From the UHGV virus genome UHGV-1351569: a DNA stretch of 64,000 bases. One strand, written 5' to 3'. The stretch comes from a virus. Each line of letters begins with the position of its first letter. The stretch's first letter is position 1. Shown one piece after another: positions 2,986 to 35,364 of the stretch. Below the pieces are notes generated by a model that saw only the letters and a program-made list of their open reading frames with translations, was not told where the DNA came from and searched no databases. The position numbers and the translations under genes were made by a program.

Positions 2986-4443
2986 TTATGCTGGTGATAA
3001 AAAGGTAGAAAGTAGTACCCATTCGCCGTCTTTACGAACGTAAGCTTGGCCATCTTTTGGAGCTTCAGGGATATAACCTGCTTCCTGTAAAGTCTGAACA
3101 TCCCCCTGTAATGAAGATACATTACTTTTAATACTACGCATTTCTTGATTAATAGAAGAAATGTTAGTTTCATTAGCTTTTATTGAATTAGTTAATCCGC
3201 GCTCTTCTACTGTTGAACCATTTGGATTTGTGCCGCTTACTAGTTTATTTAGTGCAACAACTTGGCCTTTAATTCCAGTAGTGTTATTACCAATTTCAAC
3301 TTGTAAGTTTTGAACATCATTGTTCAGTCTATTAACTGAAGTTTCAACAGTTGAAACCCTATTTAAAAGAGACCCAGGAGGAGAAGGCTGACCTCCACTA
3401 GAATCAGTTCCAACGATTTGGTTTAGCCATGAAACGTTTGCTCGTAGTCCAGATGAAGTGTTTTCACCAACAATTCCATTTAAAAACTCAATTGATGTTG
3501 TATTATCTTTAATTTGACCTTTAATACTAGAAGGAATATCATCTGAGCCAATTGACGTTTCAATGACAGTCAATCGTTGTTTAATACCTCCGCTTTTATT
3601 TAGTTCATCATTTAAAGCTGAAATTTCTTGTGTATTAGTGTTAACATCTGTGATTATTGAAGTATTTCCTGGATATCCAATAGAAGTTTTGATAGATTTA
3701 ATTTCGGAACTAAGATTAATCTGCGATTGATCTAAATTATGAACACGTGAATATATGCTTTCACTGAATGAAGATGGTCTTTGTCCAAGTTCTTGTCTAA
3801 GATTTCCGACTTCAATTGTCAGTGAACCTACATCAGATTCAATAAATTTTTCTTCCAAATCACTTAGACGTATTCCTTGGGAAGTTATAGCATCTGTATT
3901 ATTAATGATGCGGTGCTTCATACCCGTGCTGCTATTTCCTACAACAGGAAGACCATTAATGTCTTGCCCAGCATATTGTCCTAATTCCCTTTTAATCCAT
4001 AACAAATCATTTCTAATCGTTCTATAAACTGAATTTGCTTGCGAATTAAATGGACCAATATCAGAAAGAATATTATCAACCGTAGTATTTGTACCATTTA
4101 ATATATCAGTATGTTCATTCGTGAGTGTCTTTAAATTTGATATATCATTTTTATTAACACTGATCTGTGATAGCGCTTCTATATCTCCTGATACATCTAA
4201 AATGCCTTGAATGGTTTTAATATCTTCCTGAGATGTTTCAATGGCAGTTTTAAGAATTCCTACATTTTCGTCGAGAACCTCGACATTTTTAAACACAGAA
4301 ACAGTTGGTCTATTCATTGACCCATCGTTTCCATACTTAGTACTAGCTCCTAATATTTCTTCACCATTTTTAATCCATGAAATACGTTCCTGACCTTCGC
4401 CAGGAACGCTATCAACAAAAGGTAACTCTTTTAATTCAATCAT
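2986..4443 (-). CDS. wac: fibritin (whisker antigen control protein)
   Basis: 485-aa ORF ending ...[30 protein letters not shown] (fibritin foldon); repetitive coiled-coil body; between 12 and 13. Confidence 0.9.
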
Positions 4444-22429: not shown

Positions 22430-22738
22430 ATGAAAACTTACCAAGAATTTATCAATGAAGCAGCTGCGCCAAAGACATTTGTTATTAATACTCAAGCGAG
22501 TCTTGATGACGAGTACGCAGAGGCAATTTTGAAGTCACTTGCTAAGAACGGTGTTGAAGTGTCTGCATCGGACTTTAAGAAAGGGGCTTCCGAGATGTTT
22601 ATTTCTATAACTAAAGGATCTAAAGCTAAAATTAAATCATCATTCGGAGTTGCTCGTGCCGATCAAATCGACAACCATGACTTTAAACAAACTGGTGCTA
22701 AACGACAGAACACAATTGCATCACGTGGAATAAAATAG
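22430..22738 (+). CDS. internal-protein-like protein with capsid targeting sequence
   Basis: begins MKTYQEFINEA (consensus capsid-targeting sequence of T4 internal proteins, prohead protease site after ...xE). Confidence 0.6.
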   Translation: MKTYQEFINEAAAPKTFVINTQASLDDEYAEAILKSLAKNGVEVSASDFKKGASEMFISITKGSKAKIKSSFGVARADQIDNHDFKQTGAKRQNTIASRGIK

Positions 22739-24276: not shown

Positions 24277-24349
24277 TGGGAATTAGCCAAGTTGGTAAGG
24301 CACTGGATTTTGATTCCAGGATGCAAAGGTTCGAGTCCTTTATTCCCAG
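24277..24349 (+). tRNA. tRNA-Gln (anticodon UUG), CCA not encoded
   Basis: cloverleaf read by hand: acceptor TGGGAAT/ATTCCCA, anticodon stem CTGGA/TCCAG, loop TTTTGAT. Confidence 0.8.
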
Positions 24350-24350
24350 C

Positions 24351-24437
24351 GCGAGAATGGTCAAATTGGTAAAGGCACAGCACTTAAAATGCTGCGGAAT
24401 GATTTCCTTGTGGGTTCGAGTCCCACTTCTCGCACCA
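24351..24437 (+). tRNA. tRNA-Leu (anticodon UAA), type II long variable arm
   Basis: acceptor GCGAGAA/TTCTCGC, anticodon loop CTTAAAA, encoded CCA. Confidence 0.8.
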
Positions 24438-24442
24438 AATTT

Positions 24443-24516
<74 letters not shown>

Positions 24517-24526
24517 ATTTAATTTA

Positions 24527-24603
24527 CTCCGTGTAGCTCAGTTTGGTAGAGCACCTCACTTGTAATGAGGATGTCGGCGGTTCGATTCCGTCAATCAGCA
24601 CCA
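24527..24603 (+). tRNA. tRNA-like gene with Thr anticodon UGU but non-complementary acceptor stem (probable hybrid / pseudo-tRNA)
   Basis: D, anticodon and T arms fold normally; 5' acceptor strand CTCCGTG cannot pair with 3' strand AATCAGC (4 of 7 mismatches). Confidence 0.55.
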
Positions 24604-24604
24604 A

Positions 24605-24676
24605 GGCCCTGTAGCTGGAAGGTTCAAGCAAGCGACTCATAATCGCCAGATGGTGGTTCAATTCCACCCAGGGCCA
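24605..24676 (+). tRNA. tRNA-Ile (anticodon CAU, lysidine type), CCA not encoded
   Basis: acceptor GGCCCTG/CAGGGCC, T arm GGTGG-TTCAATT-CCACC, anticodon loop CTCATAA. Confidence 0.7.
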
Positions 24677-24717
24677 TATTTTGGGAACATAAATACTCTT
24701 AGAAATAGGAGATATTT

Positions 24718-25383
24718 ATGTTCTATTACACTTATAAAATAACAAATAAAATTAATAATAAAATTTATATTGGTGTGCATTCTACCGAAAATTTAGATGA
24801 TGGATATATGGGTTCTGGTAAATTATTAAAAAGAGCCCAAGATAAATATGGTATAGAAAATTTTTCTAAAGAAATATTAGAGTATTTTGATGATAAAGAA
24901 TCTATGCTTGAAGCCGAGAAAAATATTGTTACAGAAGAGTTTTTAAATAGACCAGATGTGTATAATTTAAAACTTGGCGGTGAAGGTGGATGGGACCATA
25001 TAAATATTCCTGGGATGCTAAACCAGAAGAAAGACGCTAGTTTAAAAGGAGCTAAATCGTTTAAGTCACGTTTTAAAAATGATATTTTACTTCAAGAAAA
25101 ATATCGTAAACATGGTTCAAATGTATTTAAACAGCTTTGGGATAATCCTAAGTATAGAGAGAAATTTTTAAATACTAAATCTTTCTTGGGTAAGACCCAT
25201 ACTCTTGAAACTATTAATAAAATGAAAGAATCTCACGCCAGAAATAAACACCAACAGGGCGAAAAGAATTCCCAATTTGGTATGATGTGGATTCATTCAT
25301 TAGATGAAAAAGTTTCTAAACGTATTAAGAAAACTGACCCAATTCCAGAAGGATGGTTTAAAGGTCGAAAAATGAAATTTTAA
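24718..25383 (+). CDS. segB: GIY-YIG homing endonuclease SegB
   Basis: 221 aa; N-terminal YKITNKINNKIYIGVHS...GYMGSG GIY-YIG motif; located inside the tRNA cluster as T4 segB. Confidence 0.85.
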   Translation: MFYYTYKITNKINNKIYIGVHSTENLDDGYMGSGKLLKRAQDKYGIENFSKEILEYFDDKESMLEAEKNIVTEEFLNRPDVYNLKLGGEGGWDHINIPGMLNQKKDASLKGAKSFKSRFKNDILLQEKYRKHGSNVFKQLWDNPKYREKFLNTKSFLGKTHTLETINKMKESHARNKHQQGEKNSQFGMMWIHSLDEKVSKRIKKTDPIPEGWFKGRKMKF

Positions 25384-25386
25384 TTA

Positions 25387-25463
<77 letters not shown>

Positions 25464-29312: not shown

Positions 29313-29797
29313 TTTTAAAAACTCGCTGGTATGATTTAGATGACGGGGATGATGGCATTTCAGTTGATAGAGTTGACTGGAATGGCTGTTCCGAAGATAT
29401 GAAAAATTTGCTGATTAGGGAGTTTAGAATGGGATATCAACCAGTTAAGCCATCTACTGCAACAGATGATAAATTCGTGTGTATTCATAATGGTCGCGCT
29501 AAATTAACGAACGCTGATTGGTTCACAGATAAGATTATGATTCTGTGGTATATTATTAGTTTTCCTGTGACATCATTTGTATTTTGCTTCTTTGGAGAAA
29601 GTCCAGTAGACAAAACGGGAGATTGGATTATTTTAACCATACTTGTTAATATTTTTACAGCAGCAATACTATCAGGAATATGGTACGTGTTCATTGAAAT
29701 GCCATGGCGGTTACGTAGGCAGCAAAAGATTTTTGATGAAAAGAAATATACTCAAAATTTAAATAACTTTATCACCGAATGCAGGAAATTAAAATGA
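29309..29797 (+). CDS. small membrane protein, paralogue family member 3
   Basis: two predicted TM helices; C-terminus ...NFITECRKLK. Confidence 0.55.
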   Translation: MILKTRWYDLDDGDDGISVDRVDWNGCSEDMKNLLIREFRMGYQPVKPSTATDDKFVCIHNGRAKLTNADWFTDKIMILWYIISFPVTSFVFCFFGESPVDKTGDWIILTILVNIFTAAILSGIWYVFIEMPWRLRRQQKIFDEKKYTQNLNNFITECRKLK

Positions 29798-30234
29798 AAA
29801 CATTATCAGCTGGTATTATCTTTATGACAGAAGATAAAGATTTATTCATGGGACGGGTTACTGGTTCTCGTAAGCCTGGAATGATGACACATCGCTGGGA
29901 TATTCCAAAAGGCCGTGTAGAAAATTCTGATTTGAGCGCACTAGATGCAGCACGAAGAGAATGCTTAGAAGAGACCGGTTTTAGCAATTATAATCCAGAC
30001 CTTCTAGAAGACCTAGGTGTATTTAAATATTCTAGTAATAAAGACTTACAGTTATTTTATTATACGATTCCAGTAGAGCATGAGATGTTTAGAAATTGCC
30101 ATTGCGAGTCTTATTTTGAAAATAAAGATGGCGTTATGATTCCAGAGATGGATGCTTTTGCTCTTATTCCTCGTACCCAGTGGCAATATGTGATGGGTCC
30201 TTCACTTTACCGAATAATGAACAACCTCTTTTAA
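29779..30234 (+). CDS. nudE: Nudix hydrolase
   Basis: Nudix box GRVENSDLSALDAARRECLEETGF; immediately upstream of e; alternative RBS-supported start at 29794. Confidence 0.75.
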   Translation: MQEIKMKTLSAGIIFMTEDKDLFMGRVTGSRKPGMMTHRWDIPKGRVENSDLSALDAARRECLEETGFSNYNPDLLEDLGVFKYSSNKDLQLFYYTIPVEHEMFRNCHCESYFENKDGVMIPEMDAFALIPRTQWQYVMGPSLYRIMNNLF

Positions 30235-30765
<531 letters not shown>

Positions 30766-30769
30766 AGCT

Positions 30770-30800
30770 GTTTACTTTCTCTTGGAATTGTGATAGTATA
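30770..30800 (+). promoter_or_regulatory. early promoter
   Basis: GTTTAC ... TGATAGTAT. Confidence 0.5.
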
Positions 30801-30853
30801 TTCACAGTTACTTGAATAGATAAATTACTAATTAAAATATTTAAAGGAAACCC

Positions 30854-31327
30854 ATGAAAACATATCAAGAATTTATTACTGAAGCAGCTATTAATTCTCA
30901 AATTATTGCTGAATCTTTTACTGATCTTTTGAAATTTAAAAAAGGTCAAAAAATCACTGCTGTATTGGATGATGGTACAGAAGTTGAGATGGATGTACAG
31001 GGATATAATTATGCAGTAGATGGAAAACTGTATAATAAATCTCATGCTAAATTTGATTCATTTGACGACTTTGTTAATACAGTTGAAGATGAAAAAACTC
31101 GTCGATCCATTGCAACTGGTGATGCTAAGGTTCTTATGGCACATGGTCATGAACGCATTCGCGCTAAACAGAATAAAATGGGTGAAGATAATTTTGCATT
31201 AGTTGGTTATCAATCTGGTAAACAAACTTATGGCTATCAACGTACTGCTACAGTGTATAATAAAAATGGTAAAATCGCTTTCGTGAATAGCAAAGGCTCT
31301 ATTCAGTACGTCAAATCATTCAAATAA
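30854..31327 (+). CDS. internal-protein-like protein with capsid targeting sequence (ipIII position)
   Basis: 157 aa, begins MKTYQEFITEAA; adjacent to e where T4 has ipIII. Confidence 0.6.
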   Translation: MKTYQEFITEAAINSQIIAESFTDLLKFKKGQKITAVLDDGTEVEMDVQGYNYAVDGKLYNKSHAKFDSFDDFVNTVEDEKTRRSIATGDAKVLMAHGHERIRAKQNKMGEDNFALVGYQSGKQTYGYQRTATVYNKNGKIAFVNSKGSIQYVKSFK

Positions 31328-31480
31328 GCAAATAAGAAATATGGGAACAAGCTGGACCTCATGATTCTATGAGGGATTCCCGCCAACCTGTAATAAGGTC
31401 GAGCCTAAGTGCGGTAATGGGTAAATACAGAAATGGACAATTCATGCGCCATGGAATGGCCCAAATTTAGAGAGAATAAA

Positions 31481-32020
31481 ATGAGAACATTTTTAACTGG
31501 TCCTTATCTATCCCTGATGAATGCTTTTACACACCATTCTGATGCTAGAGTAGAAGAAATTTGTAAAAACGATTATATCCCACCATTTGAAGACTTACTA
31601 AAACAATATTGCACACTTCGACTAGATGGTGGACGTCAATCTGGTAAATCAACTGCTGTGACTAACTTTGCTGCTAATTGGCTGTATGATGGTGGAACAG
31701 TTATTGTTCTTTCTAATACTTCAGCTTACGCTAAAATTTCTGCGGGCCACATTAAAAAAGAATTTTCTCGTTATTCTGGCGATGATATTCGATTCCGCTT
31801 ATTTACCGATTCTGTCCGTAGTTTTATCGGTAATAAAGGAAGCAAGTTCAGAGGTTTATCGCTTTCGCGTATTTTGTATATAATTGATGAGCCCGTTAAA
31901 TCTCCTGATATGGATAAAATTTACAATATTCATATTGAAACTGTGCACCACTGTTGCAATAGTAAATGCTGCATTGGTGGTATTACTCGTCCACAGTTTT
32001 TCATAATCGGAATGCAATGA
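31481..32020 (+). CDS. predicted P-loop NTPase
   Basis: Walker A GGRQSGKST and Walker B-like ILYIIDE; start at RBS-supported ATG (ORF extends to 31433). Confidence 0.55.
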   Translation: MRTFLTGPYLSLMNAFTHHSDARVEEICKNDYIPPFEDLLKQYCTLRLDGGRQSGKSTAVTNFAANWLYDGGTVIVLSNTSAYAKISAGHIKKEFSRYSGDDIRFRLFTDSVRSFIGNKGSKFRGLSLSRILYIIDEPVKSPDMDKIYNIHIETVHHCCNSKCCIGGITRPQFFIIGMQ

Positions 32021-32346
32021 TGACAGACACGCAACTTTTCGAATATCTTTATTTTTCGCCAAAAACTATTAAAAATAAATTGGTGAATCATTTTGAAATT
32101 TTGGCAAATAACAACGTCTTGAGCGAATTTTATCCTAAGCAATACAAATTACAAAAAGGCGTATTCAAAGGATGCAGAGTTTTGTGTACTGCTCCTAATG
32201 CAAGATTAATGAATAAAATTCCATATTTTACCATGGAATTTATTGATGGACCTTTTAAAGGACTAATCACACAGAGTTTAATGGCATATGATTCTGAGCC
32301 ATTTTTAATTAAAGAACAATCTTGGATAAATTTATTTTCTAATTGA
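32017..32346 (+). CDS. hypothetical protein
   Basis: 109 aa; ATG overlaps upstream stop (ATGA). Confidence 0.5.
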
Positions 32347-32353
32347 GGTTTAT

Positions 32354-32716
32354 ATGAAAGCATATCAAATTCTTGAAGGCACACATAAAGGCACTATTTA
32401 TTTTGAAGATGGTATTCAAGCACGAATTATTGTTTCTAAAACCTTTAAAGAGGACTCTTTTGTAGACCCAGAAATTTTCTATGGTTTGCATGCCCGTGAA
32501 ATTGAAATTGAGCAACAGCCTACAGTTAAAATTGAAGGTGGTCAACACCTGAACGTTAACGTTCTGCGTCGTGAAACTCTGGAAGATGCAGTTAAGCATC
32601 CGGAAAAATATCCACAGCTGACCATCCGTGTATCCGGTTATGCAGTTCGCTTTAACTCTCTGACTCCGGAACAGCAGCGCGACGTTATCGCTCGTACCTT
32701 CACTGAGAGTTTGTAA
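32354..32716 (+). CDS. autonomous glycyl radical cofactor (GrcA/YfiD-like) protein
   Basis: C-terminus ...[60 protein letters not shown] carries the RVSGY glycyl-radical motif; RBS GAGG. Confidence 0.8.
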
Positions 32717-32937
32717 TGGCAAAGATAATTATTGAAGGTTCTAAAGATGTGCTAAATGCTTTCGCCGAGTGGTTTAGTAATTCAGGCGAACAGCAATTTA
32801 ATGAAGCATGGAATATGGGTGATATTGATGGAATTTATCCTACGACAGAAATTTCTGTTCAGGGATATGGCATTCATGAACCTATTCGTTTAGTTGAATA
32901 TGATTTAGGTACTGGTGAGGAAGTAAAATATGATTGA
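32716..32937 (+). CDS. hypothetical protein
   Basis: 73-aa ORF, start overlaps upstream stop. Confidence 0.45.
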   Translation: MAKIIIEGSKDVLNAFAEWFSNSGEQQFNEAWNMGDIDGIYPTTEISVQGYGIHEPIRLVEYDLGTGEEVKYD

Positions 32938-33196
32938 AGATATTAAGGGTTATAAGCCACATACTGAAGAGAAAATCGGTAAAGTGAATGCTATCAAAGA
33001 TGCTGAAGTTCGTTTAGGACTTATCTTTGACGCTTTATATGATGAATTTTGGGAAGCACTAGATAATTGCGAAGACTGTGAACTCGCGAAGAATTATGCC
33101 GAAAGCCTTGATCAGTTAACTATTGCTAAAACGAAACTCAAAGAAGCCAGTATGTGGGCTTGCCGTGCAGTGTTCCAACCAGAGGAAAAATACTAA
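32930..33196 (+). CDS. hypothetical protein
   Basis: 88-aa ORF. Confidence 0.45.
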
Positions 33197-33474
33197 TGGC
33201 TCAATTAAGCGCAGGGTTTGGTTATGAGTATTATACTGCCCCTCGTCGTGTATCTGCTGCTCCTAAGAAAATTCAGAGTCTTGATGACTTCCAGGAAGTA
33301 GTTCGTAACGCTTTCCAGGACTATGCACGTTATCTTAAAGAAGATTCACAGGACTGTCTCGAAGAAGATGAAATTGCTTACTATACGCAGCGTCTTGAAC
33401 AGCTCAAAAATCTACATGAGGTTCGTGCAGAAGTTTCAAAGTCTATGAATAAATTGATTAGATTTAAAGAATAA
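33196..33474 (+). CDS. hypothetical protein
   Basis: 92 aa from ATG overlapping upstream stop (TAATG). Confidence 0.45.
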
Positions 33475-33476
33475 TT

Positions 33477-33506
33477 GTTTACTTTTCCTCTTGACTGTGG
33501 TATAAT
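33477..33506 (+). promoter_or_regulatory. early promoter
   Basis: GTTTAC ... TGGTATAAT, then RBS AGAGGAG. Confidence 0.6.
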
Positions 33507-33533
33507 TTTTCTATCAGTTAAGAGGAGAACAAC

Positions 33534-33995
33534 ATGACTATCAACACAGAAGTTTTTATCCGTCGAAATAAGCTCCGTCGTCACTTTGAGTTGGAGTTTC
33601 GTCAAATTAACAATGAGATTCGTGAGGCATCAAAAGCAGCAGGGGTCTCATCGTTTCATCTAAAATATTCTCAACATCTTCTTGATCGCGCAATTCAACG
33701 GGAGATTGATGAGACATACGTTTTTGAATTATTCCATAAAATAAAAGACCATGTTTTAGAAGTTAATGAATTCCTGAGTATGCCTCCGCGTCCTGACATT
33801 GACGAGGATTTTATTGATGGGGTTGAATACCGTCCTGGACGTTTAGAAATCACAGATGGAAATCTTTGGCTTGGATTTACAGTTTGTAAACCTAATGCGA
33901 AGTTCAAAGACCCGTCGCTTCAGTGCAGGATGGCAATTATCAACAGTCGTCGTTTACCAGGAAAGGCTTCTAAAGCAGTAATTAAAACTCAATGA
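33534..33995 (+). CDS. regB: RegB site-specific endoribonuclease
   Basis: 153 aa, MTINTEVFIRRNKLRRHFELEFRQINNEIREASK... recognised as T4 RegB. Confidence 0.85.
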   Translation: MTINTEVFIRRNKLRRHFELEFRQINNEIREASKAAGVSSFHLKYSQHLLDRAIQREIDETYVFELFHKIKDHVLEVNEFLSMPPRPDIDEDFIDGVEYRPGRLEITDGNLWLGFTVCKPNAKFKDPSLQCRMAIINSRRLPGKASKAVIKTQ

Positions 33996-34002
33996 GGTAA
34001 GC

Positions 34003-34548
34003 ATGAGAAAAGCACTACTCGCTGGTCTATTGGCCATTTCAATGATGGCACATAGCTCCGAGCATACTTTCAGTAATGTCCAACTCGATAACATGCGTTA
34101 CGCGTATCAATTCGGGGAACAATTTTCTAAGGATGGAAAATATAAAACACACAAAAATATCCACAAGAGCGGATTAGGTCATATAATGGCTGCTATTTTA
34201 TGGCAAGAAAGCTCTGGCGGAGTTAATTTAAAATCTAAACCAAAGCATCACGCTTACGGAATGTTCCAAAATTATTTGCCTACTATGCGAGCAAGAGTTA
34301 AGGAACTTGGTTATAATATGACCGACGCTGAAATAAAAAGAATGTTGAATAAACGATCCAATTCAGCTTCCTGGGCGTACATTGAACTTTCTTATTGGTT
34401 AAATATACATAAGGGCGATATAAGAAAAGCAATATCCTCTTATAATTCGGGATGGAATGTTAAAGCAGGTTCTAAATATGCTTCTGAAGTCCTAGAAAAG
34501 GCTAATTACCTTAAAAATAATAAACTTTTGGAAATAGTAAATGACTAA
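34003..34548 (+). CDS. secreted lytic transglycosylase-like protein (SLT domain)
   Basis: signal peptide MRKALLAGLLAISMMAHS; SLT motifs WQESSG, GMFQ, YNSG. Confidence 0.65.
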   Translation: MRKALLAGLLAISMMAHSSEHTFSNVQLDNMRYAYQFGEQFSKDGKYKTHKNIHKSGLGHIMAAILWQESSGGVNLKSKPKHHAYGMFQNYLPTMRARVKELGYNMTDAEIKRMLNKRSNSASWAYIELSYWLNIHKGDIRKAISSYNSGWNVKAGSKYASEVLEKANYLKNNKLLEIVND

Positions 34549-34888
34549 AATTTTGGTTTTATGTATAGGATTAATTTCATTTTCTGCTTCTGCGTCAGCA
34601 GATACATCATATACTGAAATTAGAGAATATGTAAACCGCACTGCGGCAGATTATTGTGGGAAAAATAAAGCATGCCAAGCTGAATTTGCACAGAAATTAA
34701 TATATGCATATAAAGACGGAGAAAGAGATAAATCAAGCAGATACAAAAACGATACATTATTAAAACGATATGCTAAAAAGTGGAATACTTTAGAATGTTC
34801 AGTTGCGGAGGAGAAAGATAAAGCCGCTTGTCATTCAATGGTTGACCGTTTGGTAGATTCTTATAATCGAGGATTGAGTACTAGATGA
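34541..34888 (+). CDS. small secreted protein (vs-like)
   Basis: 115 aa with signal peptide; position of T4 vs. Confidence 0.5.
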   Translation: MTKILVLCIGLISFSASASADTSYTEIREYVNRTAADYCGKNKACQAEFAQKLIYAYKDGERDKSSRYKNDTLLKRYAKKWNTLECSVAEEKDKAACHSMVDRLVDSYNRGLSTR

Positions 34889-35364
34889 TTGTAAAATATA
34901 TCAAGGGCGATATTGTCGCCCTATTTCTTCAAGGTAATATTATTGCGCACGGGTGTAACTGTTTTCATACAATGGGCAGTGGTGTAGCTGGTCAATTAGC
35001 AAGAGCCTATCCCAAAATTTTAGAAATAGATAAGACCACAACTGAATATGGTTCGCGTGAAAAACTCGGTGATATGTCTATTGTTTTTAAACATAAACCT
35101 AATGGTTTTGGCATATGTTATAACTTGTATACGCAATACGAACCAGGTCCTAATCTTGATTATGGTGCTTTAGTAAACTGCATGATAGAATTAAATCTAC
35201 AGGCAGAAACCCTTTTGTTTAAACCAGTAATTTACATTCCACGCATAGGTTGTGGTATTGCTGGCGGTGATTGGGATAAGGTTTCTAAATTAATCGACAT
35301 GTTTACTCCTGATATTGATTTAATAGTGGTGGATTATGAAAGTACATTACCCACATCCGTTTGA
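34885..35364 (+). CDS. macro-domain-like protein (ADP-ribose binding/processing fold)
   Basis: GDIVALFLQGNIIAHGCNCFHTMGSGVAGQLARAY and IPRIGCGIAGGDW resemble macro domain N- and C-terminal motifs. Confidence 0.55.
   Translation: MIVKYIKGDIVALFLQGNIIAHGCNCFHTMGSGVAGQLARAYPKILEIDKTTTEYGSREKLGDMSIVFKHKPNGFGICYNLYTQYEPGPNLDYGALVNCMIELNLQAETLLFKPVIYIPRIGCGIAGGDWDKVSKLIDMFTPDIDLIVVDYESTLPTSV

Follow-up and report, generated by a model that had tools for sequence, protein, structure and literature searches.

A candidate structured RNA element before vs.8 in a T2-type allele of the T4-like e-to-vs.8 cassette

The e-to-vs.8 interval

The stretch analysed here, 64,000 nucleotides (nt) of the virus genome UHGV-1351569 (the window, to which all positions refer unless another record is named), is of the T4-like (Tequatrovirus) genome type, its plus strand is the early-gene strand, and it carries on that strand the order nudE (29779-30234), e, one Ip4-type internal protein gene, a 150-nt gap, vs.8, vs.7 and vs.6, with regB further on. 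The T4 lysozyme gene e (30271-30765, plus strand; 164 amino acids (aa), 95.7% identity to T4 e) is the conserved left border of the variable internal-protein/denV cassette, the gene for the Ip4-type internal head protein (30854-31327, plus strand; 157 aa) is the sole gene between e and vs.8, and the vs.8 orthologue (31481-32020, plus strand; 179 aa) bounds the variable segment on the right as its constant neighbour. Within the gap, at 31343-31462 on the plus (sense) strand, lies a candidate structured RNA element with about 95% identity to T4. The interval is very probably a T2/RB32-type allele of the hypervariable e-to-vs.8 cassette, with vs.8 as its fixed neighbour and the gap occupied by a structured RNA-like element of about 120 nt.

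The variability of the cassette is apparent from the gene orders e, ipIII, ipII, denV, vs.8, vs.7, vs.6 in T4 and e, ORF127c, denV, Ip4, vs.8 in phage NR1, while the e-Ip4-vs.8 arrangement of the window is matched in one piece by RB32, RB33, AR1, JB75, OE5505, ESCO58, SG1 and T2. The cassettes of T2, RB32 and AR1 share the order nudE-e-Ip4-element-vs.8, the absence of denV and 95-96% DNA identity with the window, and the closest collinear relatives in general are approximately 95-96% identical to it; over 29780-35047, T2 (AP018813) shows 95.7% identity and the same e-Ip4-vs.8 layout. None of the deposited genomes, T2 included, is identical to the window. On the right-hand side, the order vs.8-vs.7-vs.6 is the same in T4, NR1, IME08 and T2, the DNA of the vs.8 region is present in 707 phage records, and the flanking genes share 96-98% identity with those of T4.

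The gene after e is not ipIII, to which the initial annotation, made from the sequence alone, had referred in describing the T4 interval; it is Ip4-type, matching Pfam DUF7412 (E 4e-95) and PHROG 3155 'internal virion protein' (E 4e-101) and being annotated as Ip4/ipIV in RB32, AR1 and PP01. It begins at 30854 with MKTYQEFITEA, which conforms to the N-terminal capsid-targeting sequence MKTYQEFIxE and for which cleavage by the prohead protease is predicted, and the match of T4 IPII and IPIII to it is limited to the first 11-13 aa. The T2 record calls the same gene 'valyl tRNA synthetase modifier', a misleading name transferred by similarity.

That denV and ipII are missing, as initially reported, holds for the 64 kb, where tblastn detects no homologue of DenV (T4 and NR1-type) or IPII: the best match of T4 DenV has an E value of 2.5, the NR1-type DenV has none, and IPII and IPIII match only the capsid-targeting leader (11-13 aa), common to all internal proteins, in the other genes of this kind at 30854 and 22430. 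The complete T2 genome (163,826 bp), the full record of which was assembled before the search, contains no match to either DenV type at E<=1. The denV-less state is the classical T2-type allele and the gene-content observation, real as it is, was already known. That the absence covers 64 kb of this genome only speaks against extending it further; by analogy with T2, denV would be absent genome-wide. A count of denV-less genomes through the e/Ip4 junction gave 249, which is not a clean figure as pieces were joined across short inserts.

T2 has reportedly been recognised, since the work of Streisinger in 1956 and of Harm in 1963, to be without the v gene of T4 and to be more sensitive to ultraviolet (UV) light. 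The initial suggestion of a naturally UV-sensitive T-even phage fits because T2 has the same layout and is without DenV. By extension from classical T2 genetics, this phage would be more UV-sensitive than T4 and host repair would be expected to handle UV dimers in phages with this allele.

A conserved element in the gap

The gap between the Ip4-type gene and vs.8 (31328-31480) stands out as the most unusual stretch here and was missed by the initial annotation, which described an open reading frame (ORF)-free gap of 150 bp. About 150 nt do separate the Ip4-type gene from the conserved start of the following ORF, but the gap has features of its own: beginning at 31343, a few bases past the Ip4 stop codon, and up to approximately 31475, its identity to T4 is about 95%. 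In T4 the similarity begins exactly past the denV stop codon, and RefSeq counts the stretch as residues 1-40 of a 219-aa Vs.8.

At 31386-31417 on the plus strand the stretch contains the element core ACCTGTAATAAGGTCGAG-CCTAAGTG-CGGTAA, in RNA terms ACCUGUAAYAAGGUCGAG-N7/8-CGGUAA, which shows no variation in any retrieved locus and is seen in T4-like, rV5-like, Vibrio and small uncultured phages. The 18-mer and CGGTAA are identical in 38 distinct contexts except for one Y position, and only the intervening 7-8 nt vary. This identity is given by construction for the loci from IMG/VR, bacterial genomes and metagenomes, which were retrieved with the exact pattern, so that the independent evidence for invariance is limited to the aligned loci retrieved by BLAST. 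In the window the core is present as a single copy, with 0.05 matches expected by chance.

Sensitive blastn with 151 nt located the element in 1111 phage records at 1159 places, mostly one place per record. Positions 31383-31462 are matched in unannotated intergenic DNA of Dhaka-, Moon-, Gelderland-, Marfa- and Klebsiella-infecting T4-type phages, and 31379-31421 at 86-95% in the unrelated rV5-like phages phita32 and navn, Vibrio phage F98 and the 45-kb phage Ivi. Exact searches with ACCTGTAAYAAGGTCGAG returned 34 IMG/VR loci on contigs of 14-175 kb, and ACCTGTAAYAAGGTCGAG followed by N6-12-CGGTAA 28 metagenome loci. The same pattern has a single occurrence in 185,579 genomes of bacteria and archaea, inside a 286-aa ORF on a high-GC metagenome-assembled contig (L045), which is probably a chance match, and the core has no match in 5,426 E. 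coli genomes. As judged from these searches, the element appears to be phage-restricted.

Three scans with Rfam, two of them permissive, did not connect the element with a described family. Nothing at E<=1 in Rfam 15 overlaps the element within 30700-32400, the sole match there being SNORD116 (E 0.078) at 30900-30986 inside the Ip4 gene; within 31330-31490 there was only a 9-bit match to the MS2 hairpin (E 7), and an rV5-like copy of the element matched nothing relevant. A literature search retrieved no paper containing the core sequence, and the text of a 2023 catalogue of phage RNA candidates leaves T4-like phages unmentioned.

In the structure proposed, the strands follow each other in the order a5' - CA - b5' - (hairpin h) - a3' - c5' - [ACCU GUAAYA AGGU] - CGAG - (mini-hairpin e) - CGGUAA - c3' - linker - b3'. 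Helix a would form between 31343-31347 and 31377-31381 with hairpin h (31357-31362/31369-31374) inside it, and the loop of hairpin a would pair with a downstream segment as pseudoknot b (31352-31354/31428-31430). Between the two strands of b would sit a small three-way junction composed of helix c (31383-31385/31418-31420), hairpin d (ACCU-GUAAUA-AGGU, 31386-31399) and mini-hairpin e (31404-31411), joined by the segments CGAG (31400-31403) and CGGUAA (31412-31417); this junction would hold the 24 nt that are identical in every retrieved locus. A 3' hairpin f (31448-31460) is specific to T4-like phages.

The pairing is carried by an alignment of 31 diverged T4-like sequences (A5), in which 97.1% of the cells are paired compared with 21-45% if the 3' partners are slid as a null. 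Five column pairs display double changes with no or almost no broken cells, namely 12-59 (GC 24, CG 6, AU 1), 18-114 (CG 20, AU 7, GC 4), 19-113 (GC 20, CG 11), 21-57 (CG 20, AU 10) and 68-101 (UA 11, UG 10, CG 6, AU 4). RNAalifold, without knowledge of the proposed fold, recovers the long-range helix b (17-19/113-115) as well as helices c, d, e and f. Across all clades, the closing pair of c is formed in 38 of 38 core contexts with five pair types and that of e in 37 of 38 (CG 33, UA 2, GC 2). Helices a and b occupy the same positions with unrelated sequences in different clades, with a being GGGAA/UUCCC and b CUG/CAG in the window, GAGGG/CCCUC and CUCCGG/CCGGAG in Ivi, GAAUGU/ACAUUC and CGGAA/UUCCG at locus L057, and GUGUAU/AUACAC and CGGUUA/UAGCCG at locus L073. 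A position-constrained search for this a/b architecture in 17 clade representatives gave a combined p of approximately 2e-6 against shuffles, and G.U pairs, which are compatible with the sense strand only, are frequent. The comparison supports the view that the flanking helices, including the pseudoknot, keep their pairing by compensatory changes.

Several results weigh against a structured RNA. An unconstrained search for the hairpin plus pseudoknot architecture did no better than with shuffles, two tree-robust counts (pairs or types with double changes) were not above shuffles, the compensatory changes derive from few independent lineages with representatives that are not fully independent, and helix b comprises just 3 bp in the window. 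The single-sequence fold is no more stable than shuffles either, although with z = 0.02 this is uninformative.

In two small uncultured phages, loci L027 (approximately 3010-3080) and L055 (approximately 3440-3500; coordinates oriented, downstream of the core), the sequence 3' of the pseudoknot contains a common block TCTAGC(C/T)TCGA(A/G)ATGT(A/G)G..GT.ACGGC, and the RNA of these phages may extend to about 190 nt with an extra domain.

Possible roles of the element

We infer that the element acts as an RNA. In T4-like phages it would be made within the early ip-to-vs.8 transcript and in some small phages from a promoter of its own, and the near-invariant junction would provide a binding or catalytic surface for a partner common to many gamma-proteobacterial hosts or phages. 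As a best guess, the phage would make it as a stand-alone or processed RNA, and this RNA would bind a conserved factor. The more specific proposal of a new class of functional phage RNA, a three-way junction scaffolded by a pseudoknot whose 24 invariant nt either bind a partner (a conserved factor of host or phage, or a small molecule) or act as a catalyst, is put forward tentatively; catalysis might consist of self-cleavage that processes early transcripts. Such an RNA would head, in T4-like phages, an anti-defence block of vs.8, vs.4 (Acb2) and vs.3 (TadIV-1), and be free-standing in other phage families. T4 is among the best-studied genomes, yet the element looks like an unrecognised structured RNA with a core shared with unrelated phages; the interval holds a candidate for a new phage RNA family concealed in T4 annotation. 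The element adjoins several proven anti-defence genes and, if a functional RNA, would lend itself to easy testing in either T4 or T2, with a new phage-host interaction, ribozyme or aptamer fold as a possible outcome.

With respect to known RNAs, the element resembles the hepatitis delta virus (HDV)-like ribozymes, theta included, in the nested double pseudoknot strand order a5', b5', optional hairpin, a3', inner domain, b3', and these ribozymes, too, are often encountered in phages and close to tRNA genes. It differs from them in that the strand before b3' (UAAAUA, UUUACAUA, CU, UG or absent) is without a conserved C such as the catalytic cytosine of the strand that connects P4 with P2, the minimal versions of the element (Ivi, L057 and L073) have no hairpin corresponding to P3/L3 between b5' and a3', and the invariant nucleotides are located in the part that matches the dispensable P4, where HDV-like ribozymes vary; the element has no match to Rfam HDV. 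HDV-like, pistol, hammerhead and twister ribozymes were compared by inspection and rejected, as the topology is HDV-like with the defining catalytic features absent.

A likeness to ribosomal RNA (rRNA) is restricted to short modules. The loop of hairpin d equals the GUAAUA hexaloop of 23S rRNA H44 (1093-1098, GTPase-associated centre), 13 nt downstream of which 23S rRNA contains GGUCGAGUC, while the Y=C variant of the core has GUAACAAGGU in common with 16S rRNA 1497-1506. Mimicry of rRNA (GUAAUA plus GGUCGAG in 23S, GUAACAAGGU in 16S) was discarded, the matches to E. coli rrnH being no better than those of shuffled queries (p 0.09-0.98), and the resemblance is at most one of structural modules. 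A decoy RNA of the type III antitoxin or CRISPR-repeat kind was equally rejected, the element being single-copy, mostly at one place per record and absent from the E. coli genomes searched.

Alternatively, the element could serve purely in cis, as a leader that controls translation or stability in the vs.8-vs.3 anti-defence operon and has no role as a free RNA, which we consider possible though unlikely. In most T4-type phages (Tequatro-, Dhaka-, Moon- and Gelderland-type) the element is indeed located 20-40 nt before the vs.8 start, and T4-like phages possess the extra conserved 3' hairpin beside the ribosome-binding site. In rV5-like phages, Ivi and F98, however, a strong promoter of the TTGACA-N17-TATAAT type lies 3' of the element and before the next gene, and in Marfa the element is followed by an internal-protein gene. 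At L055 the element is antisense to both neighbours, at L027 the upstream genes are on the element strand and the downstream genes converge on it, and at each of the two loci a TATAAT (-10) box is positioned a few bases 5' of helix a. The boxes at L027 and L055, the promoters after the element and the context in Marfa therefore favour an RNA with a function of its own over a dedicated vs.8 leader, although in T4-like phages it may also act as a leader. As a separate observation, the motif (C)CCTTAGAGGGCTTGA(T/A)AGTGC occurs in rV5-like phages just before the element and at L035 also just after it (L003, 1900-1935; L035, approximately 1-45 and 170-200), and may be a phage-specific promoter or terminator.

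A second alternative is that the conserved block works as DNA, either as promoter or regulatory site of the vs.8 operon or as recombination or homing target at the right border of the cassette. The block is always at the border of a variable cassette, and HNH endonuclease genes, which would fit the invariant core as a homing target, are found 0.2-0.6 kb from the element in two unrelated phages, Vibrio phage F98 (L004, 933-1490) and an uncultured 75-kb phage (L043, 2195-2731). Furthermore, the linker from c to b in non-Tequatrovirus T4-type phages is an invariant GTTTACAT (A5 columns 105-111; for example L007, approximately 2040-2046). This type-B linker resembles the T4 early -35 box and is followed, 17-18 nt on, by AAT(T/C)AT or AAACAT, the linker and an AATNAT box 17 nt downstream together resembling a T4 early promoter; the wording 'the promoter of vs.8' has also been used (PMC13243611). 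The resemblance of the linker and this wording count against an RNA. On the other hand, the promoter-like boxes are unconserved in the window and in T4, which have GTAAATAC in place of GTTTACAT, the invariant core is not promoter-like, helices 50-95 nt apart are kept by compensatory changes, and the frequent G.U pairs would be C.A on the other strand. A role as DNA appears rather improbable.

That the gap belongs to the vs.8 coding sequence at its 5' end, as the T4 annotation has it, with the window copy frameshifted or mis-sequenced, is very improbable. In favour of coding, RefSeq lists the 219-aa Vs.8, the translated window 31369-31464 is 94% identical to T4 residues 1-32, and T2 matches T4 residues 1-72 in one frame. 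However, T4 (NC_000866, 64,793-64,912, minus strand) has its vs.8 start 40 codons upstream of the start in all relatives, 10 of 11 distinct T4-type sequences contain an in-frame TAG, and the sole read-through is T4 itself, in which a T4-specific 8-nt duplication (CTTATAGAG twice) immediately precedes the real vs.8 start. The homologues in public protein sets (173-196 aa), including the diverged ones, all begin with M(R/K)TFLT (17 diverse homologues), unrelated phages have the same core outside coding DNA and ahead of other genes, and the substitutions preserve pairing and are not codon-like. The in-frame TAGs and the homologue starts place the true vs.8 start most likely at the ATG of position 31481 (MRTFLTGPY) and not at 31433, which would leave the upstream stretch non-coding, and the N-terminal annotation of T4 Vs.8 is most likely an artefact of the T4-specific duplication. 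A RefSeq start that is apparently 40 codons too far upstream matters at a time when vs.8 is expressed and modelled as a trigger of Avs2.

The vs.8 product and its surroundings

The motifs that the initial annotation had read as a P-loop nucleoside triphosphatase (NTPase), Walker A GGRQSGKST (31628-31654) and Walker B-like ILYIIDE (31871-31891), are both present in the plus-strand ORF 31433/31481-32020, in extended form as DGGRQSGKST and ILYIIDEP. The ORF is the orthologue of T4 vs.8 (T4p119, NP_049732; between denV and vs.7 in T4), with which it shares 88% identity over 195 aa (tblastn, E 2e-117), and it matches PHROG 1488 over the whole profile (E 1.9e-78). As vs.8 adjoins denV in T4, the ORF is not a denV replacement, and the idea that an unrelated NTPase gene had taken over the slot of denV and ipII, suggested by their absence and the Walker A/B ORF after the internal-protein gene, is practically eliminated and considered wrong: vs.7 and vs.6 follow as in T4, denV and vs.8 coexist in T4 and NR1, and the same DNA recurs in the 707 phage records. 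A false 'novel NTPase' is thereby removed. Of the outcome that the initial annotation had named as overturning it, a denV homologue elsewhere in the genome together with an ORF that is a conserved T4 gene of known function, half applies: the ORF is a conserved T4 gene in its normal position upstream of vs.7 and vs.6.

The sequence characteristics indicate that the vs.8 product is probably an ATPase consisting of one domain, which has a RecA-like fold and is related to the ATPase domain of large terminases. DGGRQSGK is invariant and IIDEP invariant or nearly so among 18 homologues, and DGGRQSGKST aligns with SRQLGKTT of gp17. With the ATPase of the T4-type large terminase gp17 (Terminase_6N; PDB 2O0H), vs.8 has in common the RecA-like ASCE (additional strand, catalytic glutamate) fold, the R-Q-x-G-K-(S/T) Walker A and the hhhhDE Walker B, and the PHROG terminase profile gives a weak match (E 5e-6). 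In contrast to gp17, the vs.8 product has only 179 aa, ending about 40 residues past Walker B without a C-terminal RNase-H-like nuclease domain. Two further points count against the terminase relationship: the Pfam Terminase_6N score is below threshold (14.5 bits versus a cut-off of 22, residues 66-106 only), and the RecA domains (RecA1) of superfamily 2 (SF2) helicases score as high as gp17 against vs.8. Sequence and profile searches of Vs.8 against PDB yielded nothing significant. The annotated T4 Vs.8 differs from the protein of the window by its 40 extra N-terminal residues, a stretch closed by stop codons here and in nearly all relatives.

The literature search found vs.8 only in two 2026 papers. 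One of them describes its product as ATPase-like and uncharacterised, with homology to the ATPase domain of the terminase and toxicity on co-expression with the sensor EcAvs2, and reports it as an Avs2 activator (PMC13601566), while the neighbouring vs.3 is the anti-Thoeris sponge TadIV-1 (PMC13243611). Many GenBank phage records label vs.8 and vs.7 as 'endoribonuclease RegB domain-containing protein' or 'large terminase subunit', similarity-derived names that are misleading. The T2 cassette differs from the window in that vs.8 is split in the T2 assembly, where T4 Vs.8 is matched in three frames (residues 1-72, 73-155 and 154-219) at AP018813 61,756-62,399; this is either a pseudogene or the consequence of two indel errors in the assembly.

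Downstream, the vs.7 orthologue (32017-32346, plus strand; 98% identity to T4 Vs.7) overlaps with its start the vs.8 stop codon and is followed by the vs.6 orthologue (32354-32716, plus strand; 98% identity to T4 Vs.6) with a GrcA-like glycyl-radical domain (Pfam Gly_radical, E 2.5e-18). The regB gene (33534-33995, plus strand; 153 aa), which the initial annotation took as its landmark on the right, begins with MTINTEVFIRRNKL and is collinear with regB of T4 and NR1. A 159-aa ORF at 34885-35364 would by position be the counterpart of T4 tk.4, annotated in the T4 record as A1pp (macro-domain) phosphatase, and together vs.6, this ORF, vs.3, vs.4 and vs.8 constitute a dense block of small accessory or anti-defence genes.

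Elsewhere in the window, a second internal-protein-type leader (MKTYQEFIAEA-like, 22430-22489) marks another internal protein gene near the transfer RNA (tRNA) region, in an ipI-type position. The tRNA region itself (24277-25463) contains just five tRNA genes according to ARAGORN (Gln, Leu, Gly, Met, Arg) versus nine in the region displayed of the T2 record and eight in T4, and is therefore another variable cassette.

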